The notes under the pieces are model-generated. The model was not told the DNA's origin. It searched no databases and was given only the letters and a program-made list of their open reading frames with translations. From positions 2,622-66,621 of the forward strand of contig CAZHOK010000002.1 of the NCBI GenBank assembly GCA_964534115.1: DNA of 64,000 nucleotides. Reading direction: 5' to 3'. The stretch is from an uncultured Beijerinckia sp. Its GTDB lineage: Bacteria > Pseudomonadota > Alphaproteobacteria > Rhizobiales > Beijerinckiaceae. This document shows positions 15,255-48,486 of the stretch, piece after piece (positions within the stretch are counted from its first letter, which is position 1; each line of letters opens with the position of its first letter). The position numbers were made by a program, and so were the translations under genes.

Positions 15255-15824
15255 TTGACGATTCATTTCCAGCCGATGGTTTCGCCGGAAGCATGTCCGG
15301 CACTGGTACTCAACGCGGACTTCCGGCCGTTGAGCTACTATCCGCTGTCGTTATGGTCCTGGCAGGACGCGATCAAGGCGGTCTTTCTCGATCGGGTCAA
15401 TATTGTCTCCGAATATGACAAAATGGTTCGAAGTCCGAACTTCGAAATGAGACTCCCTTCAGTTGTCTCGCTCAAAACTTACATCAAGCCGACACGACAA
15501 CCAGCTTTCACCCGCTTCAACGTCTTTCTTCGTGACCGCTTCAGCTGCCAGTATTGCTCATCCCACGAAGATTTGACCTTCGACCATGTGATTCCAAGAT
15601 CAAAGGGCGGACTGACCACTTGGGAAAATGTTGTCGCCGCATGTTCAGCCTGCAATCTGCGCAAGAGCGATCGCCTGCCTCATGAAGTGCAGATGTGGCC
15701 CGCACACAGGCCTTTTCAACCAAGTGTGAACGACCTGCACCAAAACGGTCGGCTCTTCCCACCAAATTATCTCCACGAAAGCTGGGTCGATTACCTTTAT
15801 TGGGATTCCGAACTCGAGCCCTGA
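15255..15824 (+). CDS. Stand-alone HNH endonuclease family protein
   Basis: LVLNADFRPL, NVFLRDRFSCQYC, LTFDHVIPRSKGG and WENVVAACSACNLRK (zinc-finger HNH). TTG start. Confidence 0.88.
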   Translation: MTIHFQPMVSPEACPALVLNADFRPLSYYPLSLWSWQDAIKAVFLDRVNIVSEYDKMVRSPNFEMRLPSVVSLKTYIKPTRQPAFTRFNVFLRDRFSCQYCSSHEDLTFDHVIPRSKGGLTTWENVVAACSACNLRKSDRLPHEVQMWPAHRPFQPSVNDLHQNGRLFPPNYLHESWVDYLYWDSELEP

Positions 15825-26662: not shown

Positions 26663-26868
26663 ATTTGTCCTGGAGCAATATGGAAGTCTTCCATTTCTCC
26701 GAAATGAAAACACGCATTCATGATCTGGATCATCGCGAAGAAAAGCTTGTTCTGATCCCCTTTTGTTTGTGGCGTCCCCTTCCTACATCCTGTGGAGCTG
26801 CCAATGGGGGCTCACTTTCGACGTTGCAGGATCGCTACGGGATCCGAGCAACGGTTGAGGAGAAGAAC

Positions 26869-29508
26869 ATGAACGCTGAAAAATACACTGAACGCGCACG
26901 AGGCTTCGTACAGGCCGCTCAGTCTCTGGCCTTGCGCGAAGGCCATCAGCAATTCACACCCGAACATCTTCTTAAGGTCATTCTCGATGATGAGGATGGC
27001 CTTGCTGCTGGGCTCATCAACAAGGCCGGCGGCCGCTCCCGCGAAGCCCTGATCGAAACTGAGCTTGCTTTGTCCAAGCTTCCAAAGGTTCAAGGGACCG
27101 GTGCAGGGCAATTATATCTGGCACCAACAACAGCACGTATTTTCGACTCGGCTGAAAAACTGGCACAGAAGGCTGGCGATTCCTTTGTGACCGTCGAGCG
27201 TTTGCTGCTTGCCATCGCAGCGGAAAAATCATGCGAAGCCGGAAAGATATTGTCGCAGGCAGGCCTAACCGCTCAATCTCTCAACCAAGCAATCGAAGAT
27301 CTTCGAAAGGGACGGACTGCTGATAATGCAACGGCAGAAAATGCTTATGACGCTTTAAAAAAATATGCCCGCGATCTCACGGATGCCGCGCGCTCTGGAA
27401 AGCTTGATCCGGTCATCGGCCGCGACGAGGAGATTCGAAGAACAATTCAGGTTTTATCCCGCCGCACAAAAAACAATCCGGTCCTCATTGGCGAGCCTGG
27501 TGTCGGCAAGACCGCGATCGTCGAAGGGCTTGCGCTTCGAATCGTCAATGGTGATGTGCCTGAGGGTCTTAAAGACAAAAAGCTTCTGGCTCTCGATATG
27601 GGCTCTCTTATTGCCGGTGCAAAATTCCGCGGTGAATTTGAGGAGCGGCTAAAGGCTGTTTTGAATGAAGTTACAGCGGCAGCAGGAGGAATTATTCTTT
27701 TTATCGACGAGATGCATACGCTTGTCGGTGCCGGTAAAGCAGATGGTGCTATGGATGCCTCAAACCTGCTTAAGCCCGCCTTGGCGCGCGGTGAGCTTCA
27801 TTGCGTAGGCGCAACCACACTTGATGAATATCGAAAGCATGTCGAAAAAGATGCTGCGCTGGCACGTCGTTTTCAGCCTGTTTTCGTTACAGAGCCAAGC
27901 GTAGAGGACACAATTTCTATTCTGAGGGGACTCAAGGAGAAATACGAACTTCATCACGGTGTCAGAATTACCGACTCAGCCATTGTCGCTGCCGCTACAC
28001 TTTCCAATCGCTATATTTCTGATCGCTTTCTTCCAGACAAGGCTATCGATCTTATCGACGAAGCGTCATCTCGTCTCCGCATGCAAGTTGATTCCAAGCC
28101 CGAGGAACTCGATGAAATTGATCGGAGAATCATCCAACTCAAGATCGAACAGGAAGCACTGCGAAAGGAAAGCGATGCAGCGTCTCTTGATCGTCTTGCA
28201 AAGCTTGAAGCAGAACTAGCCGATCTTGAAGAAAAATCCTCGTCACTCACATCGCGCTGGAGAGCTGAGAAAAACAAGCTTGGGGAAGCACAAAAGCTCA
28301 AAGAACAACTTGAAGCTGCCCGAAATGAACTGGCCCAAACACAGCGGCGTGGTGAATTTCAGCGAGCTGGCGAGCTGACCTATGCAATCATTCCTGGTCT
28401 GGAAAAGGAGCTCGTTGAGGTCGAAGCGAAGGCTGGAGCTGCACTTGTTGAGGAGGAAGTCACGGCTGATCATGTCGCGCAAATTGTCTCACGCTGGACC
28501 GGTGTCCCGGTTGATAAAATGCTCGAAGGGGAGCGTGAAAAGCTTCTCAAAATGGAGGCGTCACTGGCTCAACGCGTCATTGGTCAAAAAGAAGCCGTTA
28601 AGGCTGTCGCGACCGCTGTACGTCGCGCCCGAGCAGGCCTTCAGGATCCTAACCGACCCATCGGATCCTTTATGTTCCTTGGGCCAACCGGCGTAGGCAA
28701 AACAGAATTAACAAAAGCTCTTGCAGCATTTCTTTTCGACGATGAAAACGCAATGGTGCGCATTGACATGTCCGAATATATGGAGAAGCACTCCGTTTCT
28801 CGTCTGATTGGCGCTCCTCCCGGATATGTTGGATATGAAGAAGGCGGAGCGCTTACAGAAGCTGTCAGGCGGAGACCTTATCAGGTCGTTCTGTTTGATG
28901 AGATCGAGAAAGCCCACACTGATGTTTTCAATGTACTCCTGCAGGTACTTGATGATGGTCGCTTGACAGACGGGCAGGGACGCACAGTCGATTTTCGAAA
29001 TGTTCTTGTGATCATGACATCAAATCTTGGTTCAGAATATCTTGTGAACCAAGCTGAGGGTGAAGATTCAGCTACAGTCGAGAACGAAGTCATGACTGTC
29101 GTACGCGGTCATTTTCGACCTGAGTTCTTAAATCGCATCGATGAAATTATTCTTTTCCACCGATTGCGGCGGGAGGATATGGGTTCAATCGTTGATATTC
29201 AGATGGCTCGACTTGGTCGGCTGTTGGAAGACAGAAAAATGCGTGTTGAGCTCGACAAAAAAGCGCGCAACTGGCTTGCTGAGCGCGGTTATGACCCCGC
29301 CTATGGGGCGCGTCCTCTTAAACGTGTCATACAAAAATATGTTCAGGATCCGCTCGCTGAACGTATTCTCGCTGGTGTCATCAAAGATGGAGCGACGGTT
29401 CACGTCGGATCTAATGAATATGGTTTGACCATTGATGGTGAGGCCTTATTCATGGATGATGCTGCAGATCGCATGAAGGGCGCAAGCCACTCAGGTTCAC
29501 TGAATTGA
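26869..29508 (+). CDS. clpB: ATP-dependent chaperone ClpB
   Basis: Two AAA modules ([16 protein letters not shown]), a middle coiled coil and [11 protein letters not shown]. Real start is ATG 26869 after GAGGAG. Confidence 0.97.
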
Positions 29509-29518
29509 ACCTGAGTGG
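29487..29518. terminator. 13-bp inverted repeat between convergent clpB and the NHase-like operon (likely bidirectional terminator)
   Basis: CCACTCAGGTTCA-ctgaat-TGAACCTGAGTGG, a perfect stem overlapping the clpB stop and followed by a T-rich stretch on the + strand. Confidence 0.6.
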
Positions 29519-29534: not shown

Positions 29535-30182
29535 TCAGTTTGGCGTGCGTGCCTCAGCGACACCAATCATTGAGTCACGCGTCACGAGTGCTTCGAGCTC
29601 GGCCTCATTGAGGTTATCTGTTCCAGCTGGTCGCCTGGGTATGACAATATACCGAATGTCGGCAGTGGAATCGTGGACGCGAACTTCAGTTTTTTCTGGG
29701 AGGTATGTTCCAAATTCGTTCAGGACGGACCTCGGTTCATAAACGACTCGCGCTCGATATTCTCTGCTCTTGTACCAGGAAGGCGGAAGTCCGAGTAATT
29801 CTCTTGGATAACAGGAGCACAAGGTGCAAACAATTACATGATGAATATCTTCTGAATTTTCGACCGCGATAAGCTTGGTTGTCGTCATAGGAAAGCCAAG
29901 TTCGGCAACCGCCTCGTTCGCATTCATGAGTAATTTGATCCTGAATAATGGATCTAACCAGGATCTCACGACTATTTTGGCACCATTTGCCGGCGTAATC
30001 TGATCTCTCTTTTCGATTGCTGCGCGGACTTCATCAGCTGTGAAAACGCCTTTTTCAATCAGGAGCTCTTTGAGAGCTATACCGAGGATCTGATAATAGC
30101 TGTGAATTTTGTCATCGGGCTGAAGTGGAGCATGATGATGATCATCATGCCCATGTTGGTGATCATGGTGATCATGAGGCAT
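29535..30182 (-). CDS. Cobalt-type nitrile hydratase alpha / thiocyanate hydrolase gamma-like subunit
   Basis: GAKIVVRSWLDP, VIVCTLCSCYP metal-binding motif (Co-type CTLCSC), WYKSREYR, VRVHDSTADIRY and LVTRDSMIG. His-rich N-terminus. Confidence 0.93.
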   Translation of the reverse strand: MPHDHHDHQHGHDDHHHAPLQPDDKIHSYYQILGIALKELLIEKGVFTADEVRAAIEKRDQITPANGAKIVVRSWLDPLFRIKLLMNANEAVAELGFPMTTTKLIAVENSEDIHHVIVCTLCSCYPRELLGLPPSWYKSREYRARVVYEPRSVLNEFGTYLPEKTEVRVHDSTADIRYIVIPRRPAGTDNLNEAELEALVTRDSMIGVAEARTPN

Positions 30183-30495
30183 CGTCTACTCCCGATATTT
30201 TTTCCAACCAGTGGCGATATAAATCAATATCAATGCTGTCACTTTGCGAGCCAGAATAGTCATCCCAGAGGTCGGACTGATTAAACCGGACTTCATAGAG
30301 GGATTGCTTTGGCCCCTCCAGTCGATAGGCCAGTAGCTCGGGATTTCCGAATTCTCCAAAATATTTGGTGACGCGACCAATTTTTCCTCGCACGTATAAG
30401 GGCGTCCTTATGTGTCCGACTGGAAAATCCTCACGAACGCGGACCAAATCGCCGGGCTTTAAAGGTTCTTCCCAGCAATCCCCTGCTGGCTTCAC
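30172..30495 (-). CDS. Nitrile hydratase beta C-terminal (SH3-like) half / thiocyanate hydrolase alpha-like subunit
   Basis: PGDLVRV, GHIRTPLYVRGKIG, PELLAY, LYEVRF..DLW and IDLYRHWLE. GTG start overlaps the upstream stop (GTGA). Confidence 0.88.
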   Translation of the reverse strand: MKPAGDCWEEPLKPGDLVRVREDFPVGHIRTPLYVRGKIGRVTKYFGEFGNPELLAYRLEGPKQSLYEVRFNQSDLWDDYSGSQSDSIDIDLYRHWLEKISGVDDAS

Positions 30496-30833
30496 CGACC
30501 GTCTCCGTCAAAGTGAATGTCCAACTCGCCGGCTGCTTTGAGACGCTCTCGAATTACTCTCACGCGCTCATCAATCTCTGCTTGAGTCAAAATACCTTTC
30601 TCAATCATCTGGCGGGATAATGCAGCTGTCCATCGTTCGTAATAGGTCAGGGTTTGATACGCTTCATCTCCAAGGGTCTCAACGTAGCGACGGTTTTCAT
30701 GCGTTGTCACGATGCCCTTCGCCCCGATAATTGATCGAATGCCGTCGATCTGTTTTTCCCAGAAACTCACCTCATGTGGCGCAACATCAATAGATCCAGC
30801 GTGTTGGCCCCCAACGTCATGTACACCGCGCAT
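30492..30833 (-). CDS. Nitrile hydratase beta N-terminal half / thiocyanate hydrolase beta-like subunit
   Basis: MRGVHDVGG start, FWEK, ENRR..E, YYERW and EKGILTQAEI. Strong RBS GGGAGGAAG upstream. Confidence 0.88.
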   Translation of the reverse strand: MRGVHDVGGQHAGSIDVAPHEVSFWEKQIDGIRSIIGAKGIVTTHENRRYVETLGDEAYQTLTYYERWTAALSRQMIEKGILTQAEIDERVRVIRERLKAAGELDIHFDGDGR

Positions 30834-30881: not shown

Positions 30882-32858
30882 TCAAGTCTCAAAATCATAG
30901 GTGCGTTCTACAATCCGAACCAAGTCCAGCATGATCGAATTCAATTCAAAATCTTTTGGAGTGTAAACAGCGGAGACGCCCTCCGCCAAGAGAAGGGCCT
31001 TGTCTTCTGACGGGATGATGCCCCCCACAACAAGGGGAATATGACTGAGATTTTCAGCGCGCATCTGAGCGATGACTTGCCGAACCAGAGAAACATGCGA
31101 TCCCGAGAGGATCGATAAGCCCACACAATGGACATTTCCGGATCTTGCACCGGAAACAATTTCTGAGGGCGTCAAGCGAATTCCCTCATAAACAACATCC
31201 ATCCCCACATCGCGCGCTCGCACGGCAATCTGTTCAGCACCATTCGAATGGCCATCCAAACCCGGCTTGCCGACAAGAAATTTTAGGCGACGCCCGAGTT
31301 TTTGTGAGACGCGTTCAACCTCCGCTCGAATATCATCAAGATCGCCTCCAATTTGTCGTGCTTCTGCTGCAATACCCGTCGGAGCACGATATTCACCGAA
31401 AGCCTCTCTCAGAACGCTTGCCCATTCTCCAGTCGTGATACCCGCTTTCGCAGCTGCAATTGAAGGCTCCATAATATTGCGCCCCTCATTTGCAGCACTC
31501 CTTAATTCTGACAAGACCTTTCCAACAATTCTCGGATCTCGAGCATGACGCCATGCAACAAGATTAGATATTTGATCGGCTTCAACATGTTCTGGTACAA
31601 TCATAATGGACTGATTGTCAGTTGTGAGCGGAGATGGCTCGCTTTCTGTAAATCGATTGACACCGACAACAACCTGTTCACCGCGTTCAATTGCTTCCAA
31701 CCTTGCAGTATTGGATTCAACCAGCTTAGATTTCATATAACCGCTTTCCACTGCTACTATTGCGCCGCCGAGTTTCTCGATTTTCAGTAATTCCTGTCGT
31801 GCTTGATTTTTTAAATCCTCAACTTTTTTGGTTATCTCGTAACTTCCATCAAAAAGATCCCCATATTCAAGAAGATCTGTCTCATATGCCATGATCTGCT
31901 GGATACGCAGGGACCATTGCTGATCAAAGGGCCGCGGTAAGCCAAGAGCTTCGTTCCAGGCGGGGAGCTGAACAGCGCGGGCGCGAGCATTTTTTGAGAG
32001 AACGACGGCAAGCATTTCGATCAATATTCGATAAACATTATTCTCTGCTTGCTGCTCCGTCAGACCAAGAGAATTGACCTGAACACCATATCGAAACCGT
32101 CGATATTTTTCATCTTCGATAAAATATTTATTTCGAGTGATTTCATCCCAGAGCTCGGTAAATGCCCGCATTTTGCAAAGCTCTGTAACAAACCGCATTC
32201 CAGCGTTCACAAAAAAGGAAATACGACCAACGATTTCCTGAAAATTTTTTGGATCTGTTGATTCAGCATCTCTTACGCTGTCCAGGATGGCTATAGCCGT
32301 TGCAAGCGCATAACTTAATTCTTGAACCGGGGTCGCTCCTGCTTCCTGAAGATGATAGGAGCAGACATTCATCGGGTTCCATTTCGGCAGTTCTTTAGTC
32401 GTGAAGGTAATGAGATCGCGTGTCAAACGCATCGACGCCGCGGGCGGAAAAACATAAGTTCCACGCGACAAATATTCTTTGATGATGTCGTTCTGAGTGG
32501 TTCCCTGCAATTGATCGCGCTGGGCGCCTTGCTCGTCGGCGACTGCAATATACAAAGCCATCAACCACGGAGCCGTTGCATTGATGGTCATGGATGTATT
32601 CATTTCGCCGAGGGGAATGGACTCGAACAATGTTCGCATATCACCAAGATGTGAGATTGGTACGCCGACCTTCCCGACCTCACCTCGAGACAGTGGATGA
32701 TCGGAATCATAGCCGGTCTGAGTAGGCAAATCGAAGGCGATTGAGAGCCCAGTCTGCCCTTTCGCCAAATTTCTCCGATAGAGACGGTTTGAGTCGGCGG
32801 CGGTTGAATGACCTGCATAAGTACGAAATATCCACGGTCGATCAGATGTCTGGCTCAT
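30882..32858 (-). CDS. ecm: Ethylmalonyl-CoA mutase (MeaA/Ecm, B12-dependent)
   Basis: PWIFRTYAGHSTA, GQTGLSIAFDLPTQTGYD, NVCSYHLQEAGA and KPGLDGHSNG B12 motif. 658 aa, divergent from ccr. Confidence 0.9.
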   Translation of the reverse strand: MSQTSDRPWIFRTYAGHSTAADSNRLYRRNLAKGQTGLSIAFDLPTQTGYDSDHPLSRGEVGKVGVPISHLGDMRTLFESIPLGEMNTSMTINATAPWLMALYIAVADEQGAQRDQLQGTTQNDIIKEYLSRGTYVFPPAASMRLTRDLITFTTKELPKWNPMNVCSYHLQEAGATPVQELSYALATAIAILDSVRDAESTDPKNFQEIVGRISFFVNAGMRFVTELCKMRAFTELWDEITRNKYFIEDEKYRRFRYGVQVNSLGLTEQQAENNVYRILIEMLAVVLSKNARARAVQLPAWNEALGLPRPFDQQWSLRIQQIMAYETDLLEYGDLFDGSYEITKKVEDLKNQARQELLKIEKLGGAIVAVESGYMKSKLVESNTARLEAIERGEQVVVGVNRFTESEPSPLTTDNQSIMIVPEHVEADQISNLVAWRHARDPRIVGKVLSELRSAANEGRNIMEPSIAAAKAGITTGEWASVLREAFGEYRAPTGIAAEARQIGGDLDDIRAEVERVSQKLGRRLKFLVGKPGLDGHSNGAEQIAVRARDVGMDVVYEGIRLTPSEIVSGARSGNVHCVGLSILSGSHVSLVRQVIAQMRAENLSHIPLVVGGIIPSEDKALLLAEGVSAVYTPKDFELNSIMLDLVRIVERTYDFET

Positions 32859-33004
32859 AGTTGGCGCTCGCGTGGGAATTGATCACGAAATCTCTGCGGC
32901 TCGCTGCAGAGCAGCATATTCCCTCGTTTGCGCCAGCAGCACTTATTCCTTAGTGGCATGGATTTAAGGCCTCAGCTGTCCTACGATTCAGGACATTAGT
33001 AGTA

Positions 33005-33019
33005 TGGTGCACCGCAGCA
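33005..33019. promoter_or_regulatory. PhaR(AniA)-type operator in the ecm/ccr divergent promoter
   Basis: TGGTGCACCGCAGCA matches TGC-RNY-GCA-SMA on both strands. Confidence 0.55.
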
Positions 33020-33062
33020 TTCACGCTAACATGGCTTGTGGTTTCTTGCGGAGGAAAGAGCT

Positions 33063-34361
33063 GTGGGAGCGAACAATACGAAGGATGGCACGCCAACGGC
33101 CCAATCTTGTCTTGTTAAGGATCTTTACGACATAGGTGAGATCCCGCCTCTTGGGCATGTCCCAGCCCGCATGCATGCTTGGGCAATCCGTAAAGAACGG
33201 CACGGGCCACCTGAAGAATCAATGAAGCTTGAAGTGGTTCCGACTTGGTCATTGGACAGCCATGATGTGCTTGTTCTGGTGATGGCTGCCGGGGTCAATT
33301 ACAATGGCGTATGGGCAGCCTTAGGCGAACCAATTTCGCCGCTCGACGGACACAATCTGCCTTTTCATATAGCCGGCTCGGATGCCGCCGGTATTGTATG
33401 GGCCGTTGGATCAAAGGTCAGGCGTTGGAAGGTTGGTGACGAAGTCGTCGTTCACTGCAATCAGGATGATGGCGATGACGAAGAATGCAACGGTGGAGAT
33501 CCGATGTTTTCTTCAACCCAACGTATCTGGGGATATGAGACCCCCGATGGGTCATTCGCACAATTCTGTCGGGTTCAAGACCGTCAGCTTATGGCGCGTC
33601 CCAAACACTTAAGCTGGGAAGAAAGTGCTTCATATACGCTGACCTTGGCAACAGCCTATCGTATGCTGTTTGGCCACGAGCCGCATCGCTTGAAGCCAGG
33701 TGACAATGTTCTGGTTTGGGGAGCCTCGGGAGGTTTAGGCGTTTTTGGTGTGCAATTATGCGCTGCTGCTGGCGCCAATGCGATTGGCATCATTTCCGAC
33801 GAAGGGAAGCGCGATTACGTCATGTCCCTAGGCGCCCGAGGCGTGATCAATCGAAAAGATTTTAAGTGCTGGGGTCAGCTTCCGAAGGTTAATTCAACTG
33901 AATTCAATGCCTTCATGGCAGAGGCCCGGAAATTCGGAAAAGCCATCTGGAACCTCACGGGTCGCAAAGACGTCGATATTGTGTTTGAACATCCCGGTGA
34001 ACAAACTTTCCCGGTGTCATGCTTTGTTGCCAAAAGAGGCGGCATGGTTGTCTTCTGCGCCGGCACAACCGGATTTAACCTGACATTTGACGCCAGATTT
34101 GTCTGGATGCGGCAGAAACGGATCCAAGGTTCACATTTCGCGCACTTAAAGCAAGCTGCAGCTGCAAATCAATTCGTTATAGATAGGCGGATCGATCCTT
34201 GTTTGGGTGAGGTCTTTCCATGGGACAAAGCCCCTGCAGCTCATACCAAAATGTGGCGAAACGAGCATTCGCCAGGAAATATGGCGGTTCTAGTCAATTC
34301 ACCCCGACCGGGCTTGAAAACGCTTGAAGATGTCATCGAAGCATCGCAGTCAAAAATTTAG
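33063..34361 (+). CDS. ccr: Crotonyl-CoA carboxylase/reductase
   Basis: KDLYDIGEIPPLGHVP, MAAGVNYNGVWA, HIAGSDAAG, RIWGYETPDGSF, VLVWGASGGLG and WMRQKRIQGSHFA. GTG 33063 after GGAGG. Confidence 0.95.
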   Translation: MGANNTKDGTPTAQSCLVKDLYDIGEIPPLGHVPARMHAWAIRKERHGPPEESMKLEVVPTWSLDSHDVLVLVMAAGVNYNGVWAALGEPISPLDGHNLPFHIAGSDAAGIVWAVGSKVRRWKVGDEVVVHCNQDDGDDEECNGGDPMFSSTQRIWGYETPDGSFAQFCRVQDRQLMARPKHLSWEESASYTLTLATAYRMLFGHEPHRLKPGDNVLVWGASGGLGVFGVQLCAAAGANAIGIISDEGKRDYVMSLGARGVINRKDFKCWGQLPKVNSTEFNAFMAEARKFGKAIWNLTGRKDVDIVFEHPGEQTFPVSCFVAKRGGMVVFCAGTTGFNLTFDARFVWMRQKRIQGSHFAHLKQAAAANQFVIDRRIDPCLGEVFPWDKAPAAHTKMWRNEHSPGNMAVLVNSPRPGLKTLEDVIEASQSKI

Positions 34362-34487
34362 CAGAGGCTCAATCGGTCGTTAGCTTTTGATTTCACCGAG
34401 CTTGCTTCAGGTGCGGTGCGGAGTGGCCAAATTCTTCTGTATCGGGTATTTAATTTATATTGAGATCAGAAAAAGCGGCCCGAGGGT

Positions 34488-35381
34488 ATGAAGCAACACG
34501 GAAGCGACCTCTGGCTCTCTCTGGTGATTCCAGCCGCCTTCGTTTTGCTCTGGTCAACGGGTTGGATTGTCGCAAAATTTGCTGTTCGCGATGCGGATGT
34601 ATTGACCTTTCTTGTACTCCGCTATTTTGGCGCTGCCGTCATTCTGGCCATATTTGCCTGGTGGTGCGGAGCACTTTGGCCGCGTGACAGAAATGGATGG
34701 TTCCATGCATTCCTATCGGGCATTCTTCTGCATGCGCTCTATCTTGGCGGGATCTGGTGGGCAATCTCTCAGGGAGTTCCCGCCTCTATCTCGGCATTGC
34801 TTGCGGCGCTTCAGCCGATTTTAACCGCCTGTCTAGCCCCCCGCCTTGCTGGCGAAAAGGTTTCATCCTTGCAATGGACGGGTATTTTACTGGGCCTTTT
34901 AGGAATCCTTCTTGTTCTTGCGCCGAAGCTGGCTTCGCTAACAGCTGCAGAACTGCAAGGGTCTATTGTTGCACTTTCCGTGAATGCGCTCGGAATGGTT
35001 GCTCTTACATTGGGGACTTTTTATCAGAAGCGCTTTTTGCAAAAAATGGACTTACGAGCCGTAGGATCAATTCAGTTTGCGGCAGCGATGCTTGTGACCT
35101 TGCCCGCGGCATATGTTTCCGAGAGCATGCATGTAGTATGGTCGCTCAATACAATATTAAGTTTAGCTTGGTCGATCGGGGCCCTTTCGATTGTTTCAAT
35201 CGCGCTGCTTCTTCATCTTTTGCGTAAAGGCGAAGTCGCTCGCGCAGCACAGCTGATCTACCTTGTGCCCCCAACGGCTGCCATTCAGGCTTTTCTCTAT
35301 TTCGGTGAAACGCTTACTTCCATACAAATGGCAGGCATGGCTCTGACCTGTCTGGGCGTGGCTTTGGCAGTACGGCGGTGA
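34488..35381 (+). CDS. DMT/EamA family transporter
   Basis: FVLLWSTG start, about 10 TM helices and two EamA repeats (LAGEK..., FGETLT). Confidence 0.88.
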   Translation: MKQHGSDLWLSLVIPAAFVLLWSTGWIVAKFAVRDADVLTFLVLRYFGAAVILAIFAWWCGALWPRDRNGWFHAFLSGILLHALYLGGIWWAISQGVPASISALLAALQPILTACLAPRLAGEKVSSLQWTGILLGLLGILLVLAPKLASLTAAELQGSIVALSVNALGMVALTLGTFYQKRFLQKMDLRAVGSIQFAAAMLVTLPAAYVSESMHVVWSLNTILSLAWSIGALSIVSIALLLHLLRKGEVARAAQLIYLVPPTAAIQAFLYFGETLTSIQMAGMALTCLGVALAVRR

Positions 35382-35457
35382 ACAACAGTCCGAAAGGCTG
35401 ATTGCCCTGCGGTCCGGCTTATGTTGCGATGCAAAATGCTTATTCGGAGAATGCGAG

Positions 35458-37143
35458 ATGACTGGTCAGACATACCAGAATCCCGGGCTATCGGCGCAGG
35501 ATTTTCTTGAGCTTGCAGACAAGGCCTTTATCGACGTCGAACAGCTTTTCAAAGAAATTAGAACTGTCGTAAGAGCGGATGTCTCGACTGATGGAAGAAT
35601 CAATCCAGCGGCGATGGATGCCTCGCAGCACACGACGCATGGGCTTGCATGGTTCGCAACCTATTTGGAATCTTTGCGAGAAATGATCGCTTATGCACGC
35701 AGACTTGAAGAAGAGAATCGCTTTGGCGAGATTGAGGAGCTTCTGACGCGGATCGGCGTTGGGGAGTATATTGCACAATTCTTTGGTGGGATTCCAATGA
35801 ATCAAGGCGAGTTTATTCGGCTTGATGATTTCAATTTATCCCAAGAATTGATCGTAAAGTATAGATCTGACGCTGTTGGTCGCGTGATCGCAAATGGCAA
35901 TACAGCACTGAACCGCGCCAAGCTCGTTTCTCTCATTGCAGGACTCGACACGACCGCTTTGGTCGGTAACCCCGGTCTTGATGACACAATGGAATCCATC
36001 CGCGAAGAAATCAGAAAATTCGCGGCTTCAAAAATTGTCCCATATGCCCATGAATGGCATCTTGCCAACGATTATATACCGCTTGAAATCGTAGACGACC
36101 TTTCGGCTCTTGGAGTCTTTGGACTCACAATTCCAGAACAATATGGCGGGATGGGACTCGGTAAAATAGCCATGTGTGTCGTAACAGAAGAATTGTCTCG
36201 AGCCTATATCGGCGTCGGTTCTCTTGGAACCAGATCTGAAATTGCGGCAGAACTCATTATCTGCGGCGGCACCGAAGAACAAAAGCAATCTCTCCTTCCT
36301 CAAATTGCATCTGGTGAGATCCTCCCAACAGCAGTGTTTACGGAGCCCAACACAGGGTCCGATCTTGCATCCCTTCGGACGCGTGCAGTTCGTAAGGGTG
36401 ACGCCTATATGGTTACGGGAAACAAAACTTGGATCACCCATCCCGTACGCGCCGACCTCATGACAATTCTTGCGCGAACAAATCTTTCAGAGCCAGGCTA
36501 TAGAGGTCTATCTATGTTTTTGGCTAAAAAGCCACGCGGCACTGATGCTGATCCATTTCCTGTTGCGGGCATGTCGGGGAGCGAGATTGAGGTCCTTGGC
36601 TATCGTGGGATGAAAGAGTACGAAATTGCGTTTGATGACTTTCGGGTTCCTGCAGAAGATTTGCTTGGTGGCATAGAAGGCCAAGGCTTTAAGCAGCTGA
36701 TGCAAACATTTGAGGCAGCACGAATCCAGACGGCTGCCCGATCAGTCGGCGTAGCGCAAAACGCACTCGAACTAGCAGTTCGCTATGCCATGGAGCGTAT
36801 ACAATTTGGAAAACAATTGATCGCTTTCCCGCGCGTTGCTGACAAGATTGCACTTATGGCAGTCGAAATTCATATTGCCCGACAACTCACATATTTTTCA
36901 GCGCGGGCCAAAGATGCGGAAAAAAGATGCGATGTCGAAGCAGGAATGGCCAAGCTTCTCGGAGCCCGAATTGCTTGGTCTGCGGCCGACAATGCACTAC
37001 AAATACATGGCGGAAATGGTTTCGCCTTAGAGTATCAAATATCTCGCGTGCTTTGTGATGCACGTATTCTTAATATTTTTGAAGGAGCTGCAGAAATTCA
37101 AGCTCAGGTTATCGCTCGTCGCATCCTTGAAGATATAAATTGA
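35458..37143 (+). CDS. mcd: (2S)-methylsuccinyl-CoA dehydrogenase (long acyl-CoA dehydrogenase)
   Basis: 561 aa with the N-terminal extension (THGLAWFATYLESL), AVFTEPNTGSDL, GSEIEVLGYRGMKEY and LNIFEGAAEIQ. Clustered with ccr and ecm. Confidence 0.85.
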   Translation: MTGQTYQNPGLSAQDFLELADKAFIDVEQLFKEIRTVVRADVSTDGRINPAAMDASQHTTHGLAWFATYLESLREMIAYARRLEEENRFGEIEELLTRIGVGEYIAQFFGGIPMNQGEFIRLDDFNLSQELIVKYRSDAVGRVIANGNTALNRAKLVSLIAGLDTTALVGNPGLDDTMESIREEIRKFAASKIVPYAHEWHLANDYIPLEIVDDLSALGVFGLTIPEQYGGMGLGKIAMCVVTEELSRAYIGVGSLGTRSEIAAELIICGGTEEQKQSLLPQIASGEILPTAVFTEPNTGSDLASLRTRAVRKGDAYMVTGNKTWITHPVRADLMTILARTNLSEPGYRGLSMFLAKKPRGTDADPFPVAGMSGSEIEVLGYRGMKEYEIAFDDFRVPAEDLLGGIEGQGFKQLMQTFEAARIQTAARSVGVAQNALELAVRYAMERIQFGKQLIAFPRVADKIALMAVEIHIARQLTYFSARAKDAEKRCDVEAGMAKLLGARIAWSAADNALQIHGGNGFALEYQISRVLCDARILNIFEGAAEIQAQVIARRILEDIN

Positions 37144-48411: not shown

Positions 48412-48486
48412 TGGAGCGGGCGAAGGGATTCGAACCCTCGACCCCAACCTTGGCAAGGTTGTGCTCTACCCCTGAGCTACACCCGC
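48412..48486 (-). tRNA. tRNA-Gly (GCC)
   Basis: Reverse complement GCGGGTGTAGCTCAGGGGTAGAGCACAACCTTGCCAAGGTTGGGGTCGAGGGTTCGAATCCCTTCGCCCGCTCCA gives a full cloverleaf, anticodon GCC and an encoded CCA. Confidence 0.97.

Follow-up and report, generated by a model that had tools for sequence, protein, structure and literature searches.

The 64-kb window analysed here (the whole stretch of 64,000 nucleotides, from contig CAZHOK010000002.1 of an uncultured Beijerinckia sp.) carries a compact minus-strand operon of three genes, betaN, betaC and alpha. Sequence comparison indicates that these genes probably encode a cobalt-type enzyme of the nitrile hydratase (NHase) family, made of three subunits and with the beta subunit split between two genes. 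The operon and the features that bear on its relation to cobalt-type NHases (Co-NHases) and to thiocyanate hydrolase (SCNase) are as follows.

30492..30833, minus strand: betaN gene, 113 aa; PF21006 NHase_beta_N, 8.7e-21
30172..30495, minus strand: betaC gene, 107 aa, GTG start; PF02211 NHase_beta_C, 1.1e-18
29535..30182, minus strand: alpha gene, 215 aa, predicted Co-type metal-binding subunit; PF02979 NHase_alpha, 8.9e-77
30132..30182, minus strand: N-terminal tail of alpha, MPHDHHDHQHGHDDHHH, rich in His (10 of its 17 residues)
29802..29828, minus strand: metal-centre motif of alpha, C119-T-L-C122-S123-C124-Y-P-R127
30687..30704, minus strand: betaN motif T44-H-E-N47-R48-R49, placed by alignments to Co-NHase and SCNase beta
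30630..30644, minus strand: betaN Y64-Y-E-R-W68, equivalent to betaTyr68...betaTrp72 of Co-NHases (the conserved active-site Tyr and the pocket Trp)
30394..30420, minus strand: betaC V-G-H-I-R30-T-P-L-Y, in which R30 aligns with the Arg of P. putida GHTRMPRY
29487..29518, no strand: perfect hairpin of 13 bp, lying where the ends of clpB and alpha converge

The betaN stop and the betaC GTG start overlap as GTGA, alpha shares its first 11 nt, from the ATG on, with the end of betaC, and a GGAG-type ribosome-binding site lies ahead of each gene (for betaN, GGGAGGA 6 nt 5' of the ATG); the three genes would be translationally coupled. BetaN begins with MRGVHDVGG, as in canonical NHase beta. All three products pass the Pfam gathering cutoffs, alpha with 257.1 bits, betaN with 74.6 and betaC with 67.9, against cutoffs of 27.2, 21.5 and 27.7. 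BetaN corresponds to the N-terminal half of NHase beta, to SCNase beta and to AnhD of S. canus; betaC corresponds to the C-terminal, SH3-like half of NHase beta, to SCNase alpha and to AnhE; and alpha is the counterpart of SCNase gamma and AnhA. The hairpin is likely a bidirectional terminator closing the operon. It alone looked meaningful in a promoter and terminator scan, which otherwise returned weak promoter-like matches.

Classical Co-NHases (P. putida 3QXE, Bacillus RAPc8 2DPP and P. thermophila 1IRE) are the best overall matches, with alpha E-values of 1e-53 to 1e-62. Among PDB chains, alpha matches Co-NHase alpha at 1e-59 to 1e-62, as opposed to 5.6e-48 for SCNase gamma, and for betaN and betaC, too, Co-NHase beta gives higher scores than SCNase beta and alpha do. 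The best PDB matches of alpha are all Co-type, with Fe-type chains ~40 bits lower, and the Co-type signature is present, with the Thr and Tyr of IVCTLCSCYP in place of the Fe-type VCSLCSCT. The superfamily metal motif C-(T/S)-L-C-S-C appears as C119-T-L-C122-S123-C124. On TIGR03888 the two beta halves reach 62.7 and 70.2 bits against a cutoff of 152.2, a shortfall that is expected for a split subunit. The classical enzymes differ from the window's in having a one-chain beta that is followed by a dedicated activator gene, and in a pocket with Trp after CSCYP, Leu48 and Phe51; their solved alpha chains begin at or after residue 9 of the window alpha and are without the full His-rich tail.

An earlier note on this DNA had located CTLCSCYPR at 29802-29828 (alpha C119 to R127) and HENRR at 30687-30701 (betaN H45 to R49), and both positions are exact. 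It had also guessed that the Arg after CSCYP falls on SCNase gammaArg136, that the catalytic beta Arg is kept, and that Asn stands at betaArg90. HMMER alignments confirm all three equivalences. BetaN aligns with SCNase beta (2dd4_B) without gaps, pairing N47 with R90, R48 with R91 and R49 with R92; we checked whether the arginines of ENRR might instead fill both SCNase beta-Arg positions, and they do not, Asn47 lying on betaArg90. Against the P. putida Co-NHase beta chain (3qxe_B), T44 pairs with L48, N47 with F51, R48 with R52, E52 with E56, Y64 with Y68, R67 with H71 and W68 with W72, a numbering validated by the E56Q and H71L mutant chains in the same alignment output. Alpha R127 aligns with gammaR136 in residues 114-156 of 2dd4_C (...VVVCTLCSCYPRPILG...), and C119, C122, S123 and C124 with gammaC128, C131, S132 and C133; this SCNase segment (RVLADSPTLKHVVVCTLCSCYPRPILG...) was reached with a composite query. 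The scores of two further chains are as the equivalence of R127 and R136 predicts: 3vyg_C, the SCNase chain with R136W, falls 3.4-3.9 bits short of wild type, and 3vyh_A exceeds wild-type P. thermophila alpha (1ire_A) by 3.6-3.7 bits.

Compared with Co-NHases, all metal ligands are kept, as are both alignable beta Arg residues (R48 and R30), Tyr68, Trp72 and Glu56. We take betaC R30 to be the second conserved beta Arg that contacts the oxidised cysteines. Thr44, Asn47 and Arg127 stand where the classical enzymes have Leu48, Phe51 and the alpha Trp that follows CSCYP, positions that line the substrate channel in P. thermophila and P. putida NHase and in SCNase. The aligned residues thus bear out the suggestion that the pocket is neither that of a canonical Trp/Phe Co-NHase nor that of SCNase.

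The further proposal, that the Arg following CSCYP marks SCNase-type selectivity and makes the active site a mosaic, is not supported by a survey of where that Arg occurs. The alpha search was exhaustive over 1.84 billion cluster representatives, and the best 150 relatives (50%-identity clusters) were tallied. The residue after CSCYP in these is most often Arg (R 53, W 24, L 11, T 10, S 9, V 8, the rest rarer), and CTLCSCYPR[D/E] is present in all 120 of the closest alpha homologues. A scan of GTDB species genomes, in which 80 loci were taken in and 333 further candidates lie beyond these, gave CSCYPR at 80 of 80. These loci come from five Hyphomicrobiales metagenome-assembled genomes (MAGs; 74-80% identity) and ~75 mostly Rhodobacteraceae genomes (55-63%), including Jannaschia, Roseovarius, Yoonia, Loktanella and Litoreibacter. 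In fused proteins that contain both positions and have the alpha Arg, the residue just ahead of the catalytic Arg is L, T, M, S, V, H, K or F, and in none of them is it Asn or Arg. Split-beta NHases on plasmids combine CSCYPRP with EEKRR (Agrobacterium tumefaciens pAt) and CSCYPRM with DDELRR (Planktothrix). Because it is frequent in alpha clusters and is paired with many beta residues, Arg127 is not an SCNase signature. It is the ordinary state of the lineage and of much of the superfamily rather than a transplant from SCNase, and its combination with a non-SCNase beta residue is what a very large lineage normally shows and does not make the site a hybrid. A His-rich stretch before alpha showed no link to the residue after CSCYP among 122 representatives (19 R and 10 W with the stretch, 22 R and 11 W without). 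In a published phylogeny (PMC10098168), Alphaproteobacteria, Actinobacteria and Cyanobacteria are reported to be enriched in SCNase "orthologs"; given the distribution of the Arg, these may include split NHases of the CSCYPR kind.

The beta position is where the clade stands apart. The betaN motif [H/D]-E-N-R-[R/A] has Asn in 116 and Ser in 4 of the 120 closest homologues, its second Arg being replaced by Ala in 3. The Hyphomicrobiales loci read ...THENRRY..., as in the window, whereas in the Rhodobacteraceae loci the sequence is ...VDGLRR..., which has Leu in place of Asn47, and sister lineages have Leu, Lys, Thr, Met or Phe there. On these alignments it is Asn47, with Thr44, that is peculiar to the clade, and the conservation of CSCYPR[D/E] (120/120 alpha) and of E-N-R (116/120 betaN) points to purifying selection. 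Judged by its motif, the E-N-R-R clade occurs widely among Hyphomicrobiales of fresh water, and many genomes of marine Rhodobacteraceae contain cousins that have Leu instead. The His-rich alpha N-terminus is common to all but one of 120 close homologues.

The division of beta is just as regular. BetaN, betaC and alpha are separate adjacent ORFs (open reading frames) at 79 of the 80 loci, the remaining locus being cut off at its end, and on this ground we consider the split genuine and not a frameshift. The same split is annotated in the Agrobacterium and Planktothrix plasmids and called in metagenome contigs. Architectures among the 150 nearest alpha clusters comprise 82 with alpha alone, ~32 betaN-betaC-alpha fusions (some eukaryotic, including one with CSCYPR from the green alga Prasinococcus), ~15 betaC-alpha, 11 betaN-alpha and 5 alpha-betaN; NHases thus come in many more arrangements than an alpha with a beta. 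Many betaN homologues are named "hypothetical protein", "phasin" or "succinate dehydrogenase..." by JGI, and RefSeq names both beta halves of A. tumefaciens plasmid pAt1 "SH3-like domain-containing protein".

We consider it likely, again from comparison with characterised relatives, that the operon encodes a functional, self-maturing, three-subunit Co-type NHase with the canonical Cys-sulfenate/Co(III) mechanism, belonging to a large, strongly conserved alphaproteobacterial clade that is uncharacterised. By homology, low-spin Co(III) would be held by alpha Cys119, Cys122, the backbone amides of Ser123/Cys124 and the Cys124 sulfur, with Cys122 oxidised to the sulfinate and Cys124 to the sulfenate. 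The oxidised Cys oxygens would be hydrogen-bonded by betaN Arg48 and betaC Arg30, and betaN Tyr64 and Trp68 would complete the site. The sulfenate oxygen would then attack a nitrile bound to Co, and the amide would be released. With Thr44 and Asn47 in place of the Leu and Phe of classical NHases, the pocket is predicted to be small, polar and cationic, and so would be expected to favour small hydrophilic nitriles in nitrile-to-amide hydration.

Maturation is probably self-contained, because no activator gene is present: none of the ORFs checked in the 64-kb window is activator-like or encodes an amidase or aldoxime dehydratase, no second beta-like or activator-like ORF was found anywhere in it, and nothing lies between alpha and the convergent clpB. 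This would match AnhD-AnhE-AnhA of S. canus CGMCC 13662, which the locus resembles in its betaN-betaC-alpha order, split beta, Co-type CTLCSC and want of a nearby activator gene. The S. canus enzyme matures without an activator, AnhD serving as the chaperone (PMC7329996). ToyJKL of S. rimosus, the toyocamycin nitrile hydratase, is the other three-subunit Co-NHase without an activator and hydrates toyocamycin (PMC7329996; PMC13243292); it is of the same split-beta kind. These likenesses are of architecture and gene order, the hosts being actinomycetes as against an alphaproteobacterium here. Three-subunit, activator-less Co-NHases are therefore already known, and the window enzyme is best read as a further one. 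Ensifer adhaerens CnhA and the Microvirga NHases, tried as other three-subunit examples, proved to be alpha/beta/activator enzymes. The His-rich alpha N-terminus may help to capture cobalt. Eukaryotic fused beta-alpha NHases, including that of Monosiga brevicollis, have a His-rich stretch before the alpha domain and are reported to need no activator (PMC3323583); they share that stretch alone with the window enzyme, beta and alpha being in one chain as opposed to three ORFs. A 21-enzyme NHase expression panel was chosen exclusively from operons with activators (PMC7321127).

The surroundings of the operon, and three further features of the window, are as follows.

30882..32858, minus strand: B12-dependent acyl-CoA mutase (ethylmalonyl-CoA-mutase-like), 48 nt upstream of the NHase operon and on the same strand
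33036-34361, plus strand: crotonyl-CoA carboxylase/reductase-like ADH-family gene
35458-37143, plus strand: acyl-CoA dehydrogenase, 561 aa
11763-12344: PduO-type cobalamin adenosyltransferase
15255-15824: stand-alone HNH endonuclease ORF
48415-48486: tRNA gene, the sole Rfam match in the window

The neighbourhood from 30882 to 37143, on the side where an EamA transporter is also found, looks like an ethylmalonyl-CoA-pathway cluster. The other side holds the housekeeping neighbours htpG, prmC, a DUF4167 gene and clpB; the clpB ORF (26665-29508, 947 aa) starts at a TTG and has probably been called too long at the N-terminal end; a canonical-looking start lies ~68 codons downstream. The mutase and the NHase are two cobalt-dependent enzymes back to back, which may or may not be significant. 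The order ccr, ecm-betaN-betaC-alpha, clpB is kept in the five closest Hyphomicrobiales MAG loci and in these only; clade members at ~70% identity have guaB...guaA, adjacent SDR, hydantoinase or trpA contexts, and no consistent partner (amidase, aldoxime dehydratase, transporter or regulator) was found across the contexts examined. The Rfam search of the window gave nothing near the NHase operon.

Other members of the family have neighbours of their own. A Beijerinckiaceae MAG (locus L086, 2527-6696) and a Logan contig (L087, 843-5012) carry an IorAB-like molybdenum hydroxylase between betaC and alpha, on the same strand; it consists of a 150-aa 2Fe-2S subunit and a 720-aa molybdenum-cofactor subunit, and the alpha there is ~70% identical to the window alpha. 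A further clade member (L083) has a three-subunit xanthine-dehydrogenase-family cluster ~2.5 kb away. The Rhodobacteraceae split NHase (CSCYPRN with VDGLRR) is, by eye, often near FliG-like, LuxR/LuxI, lipid A-type acyltransferase, DUF1223 and aconitase genes. On A. tumefaciens plasmid pAt1 (NZ_CP048575.1; L081, 3595-7013) the order is betaC-alpha-betaN, followed by aquaporin, DUF302, CbtB and CbtA genes; the CbtA/CbtB cobalt transporter connects this relative with cobalt.

The G+C content of the window is 53%, and near-identical DNA is found in river, reservoir, drinking-water and other freshwater metagenomes. Short metatranscriptome contigs from four independent freshwater/estuarine studies match the operon (29554-30696) with 95-99% identity, two of them running across gene junctions; the same searches gave no metatranscriptome contig match to the adjacent mutase gene. 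This is weak evidence that the operon is polycistronically expressed in situ, possibly from its own promoter.

Several observations weigh against a self-maturing NHase of canonical activity. Alpha scores 245 bits on TIGR01323, the NHase alpha equivalog model, marginally under the cutoff of 249.85. The pocket differs at three positions from every aligned characterised NHase, which would make activity on standard nitriles an extrapolation, and we found no assay of any clade member in the literature searched. None of the ~10 contexts examined has a linked amidase or nitrile-forming gene, and no pathway is visible in them. The metatranscriptome contigs could include DNA carry-over. As for the proposed role of the His-rich tail, deletion of the His17 stretch of the Monosiga NHase reportedly did not abolish maturation.

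The alternative that fares best is a specialised hydratase that does poorly on classical substrates, its Arg127/Asn47/Thr44 pocket being selective for a particular nitrile of polar, anionic or heterocyclic character; beta-cyanoalanine, cyanoacetate, aminoacetonitrile, cyanamide and a cyano-N-heterocycle would be examples. A polar or anionic substrate is plausible because Asn47 is so conserved (Ser being the sole replacement, while sister lineages carry different residues) and because the pocket, with three hydrophobic Co-NHase residues changed to Thr, Asn and Arg, is more polar than in classical NHases. The IorAB-like insertion and the nearby xanthine-dehydrogenase-family cluster could hint at metabolism of N-heterocyclic nitriles. 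The clade neighbourhoods, however, are inconsistent (ecm/ccr, guaB/guaA, SDR, hydantoinase, trpA), and Arg after CSCYP is too widespread to imply one substrate class. AnhDEA of S. canus, with the same architecture, takes bulky neutral nitriles, hydrating acetamiprid, thiacloprid and benzonitrile (PMC7329996). We put such specialisation forward tentatively. A general preference for small polar or anionic nitriles is, on the same residues, at best equally tentative. That the whole E-N-R-R/CSCYPR[D/E] clade might be a distinct hydratase, tuned to small hydrophilic or anionic compounds with a C-N triple bond that classical NHases handle poorly, is a possibility to be held a little more loosely still; the first four compounds named above, and even thiocyanate, would be its candidate substrates.

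Less probable is an NHase of broad specificity that acts, for example, in auxin synthesis by converting indole-3-acetonitrile to indole-3-acetamide, as is commonly assumed in roseobacters and rhizobia. NHases of marine Rhodobacteraceae have been discussed in that role, and NHase genes are reported to have been gained in the marine members, their presence tracking marine habitat at 62% vs 0% (PMC5437341). The Rhodobacteraceae loci found here are of the split, CSCYPR type and may be the NHase in question. Yet the polar Asn/Thr/Arg pocket is ill-suited to a hydrophobic indole, no context examined has a linked amidase, and the three-subunit NHase of S. canus is almost inactive on indole-3-acetonitrile (PMC7329996). 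We regard a generic or auxin-pathway NHase as improbable.

More improbable again is a variant SCNase, which would convert thiocyanate or another pseudohalide to COS and ammonia with Arg127 and Arg49 standing in for betaArg90. The likeness to the SCNase of T. thioparus THI115 (2DD4/2DD5) is real as far as it goes: three subunits with the same correspondence and split betaN-betaC-alpha order, CTLCSCYPR with its Arg, Arg48/Arg49 on betaArg91/92, and an SCNase gamma that is also rich in His and Asp at its N-terminus (DHDHDHDH; ...DHDHDHDHDHDHK...), like the alpha tail here. These shared features, the split beta and the His/Asp-rich N-terminus of the metal subunit included, occur in many lineages that have no link to thiocyanate. 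Alpha reaches 194.2 bits on TIGR03887, the SCNase gamma equivalog model, ~97 bits short of its cutoff of 291.45 and below its score on the NHase alpha model, and all three subunits are nearer to Co-NHases. Asn replaces betaArg90, and the SCNase N-terminal extensions are absent, ~45 aa of beta (betaN residue 3 aligns with 2dd4_B residue 46) and ~25 aa of alpha (betaC residue 11 aligns with 2dd4_A residue 36). The named hosts, freshwater Hyphomicrobiales-like bacteria and Rhodobacteraceae, look heterotrophic. Finally, a decaying or non-functional remnant, such as a frameshifted beta gene, might be suspected from a beta in two pieces and from the missed equivalog cutoffs, but the catalytic residues are conserved and the same split, with intact ORFs and ribosome-binding sites, recurs in two orders (79 of 80 loci) and in hundreds of homologues from metagenomes, which effectively refutes it.

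Arg after CSCYP, the commonest state among the non-classical NHases sampled, is unsuited to calling SCNases or "SCNase-like" pockets in annotation or phylogenies. By contrast, the residue at the position of betaPhe51 and SCNase betaArg90 depends on the lineage (Asn, Leu, Lys, Thr, Met, Phe or Arg) and is the better guide to specificity and to the choice of enzymes for screens. The split type is systematically under-annotated and so easily missed. Genomes from rivers, reservoirs, drinking water and the sea contain its clade in abundance. Being activator-less, the clade is a cheap and potentially useful target for biocatalysis without a helper protein; it may help to account for the enrichment of NHase genes in aquatic Alphaproteobacteria. 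If the clade did prove to be a distinct hydratase for small hydrophilic nitriles, it would give oligotrophic bacteria an unrecognised route for scavenging nitrogen from natural nitriles.

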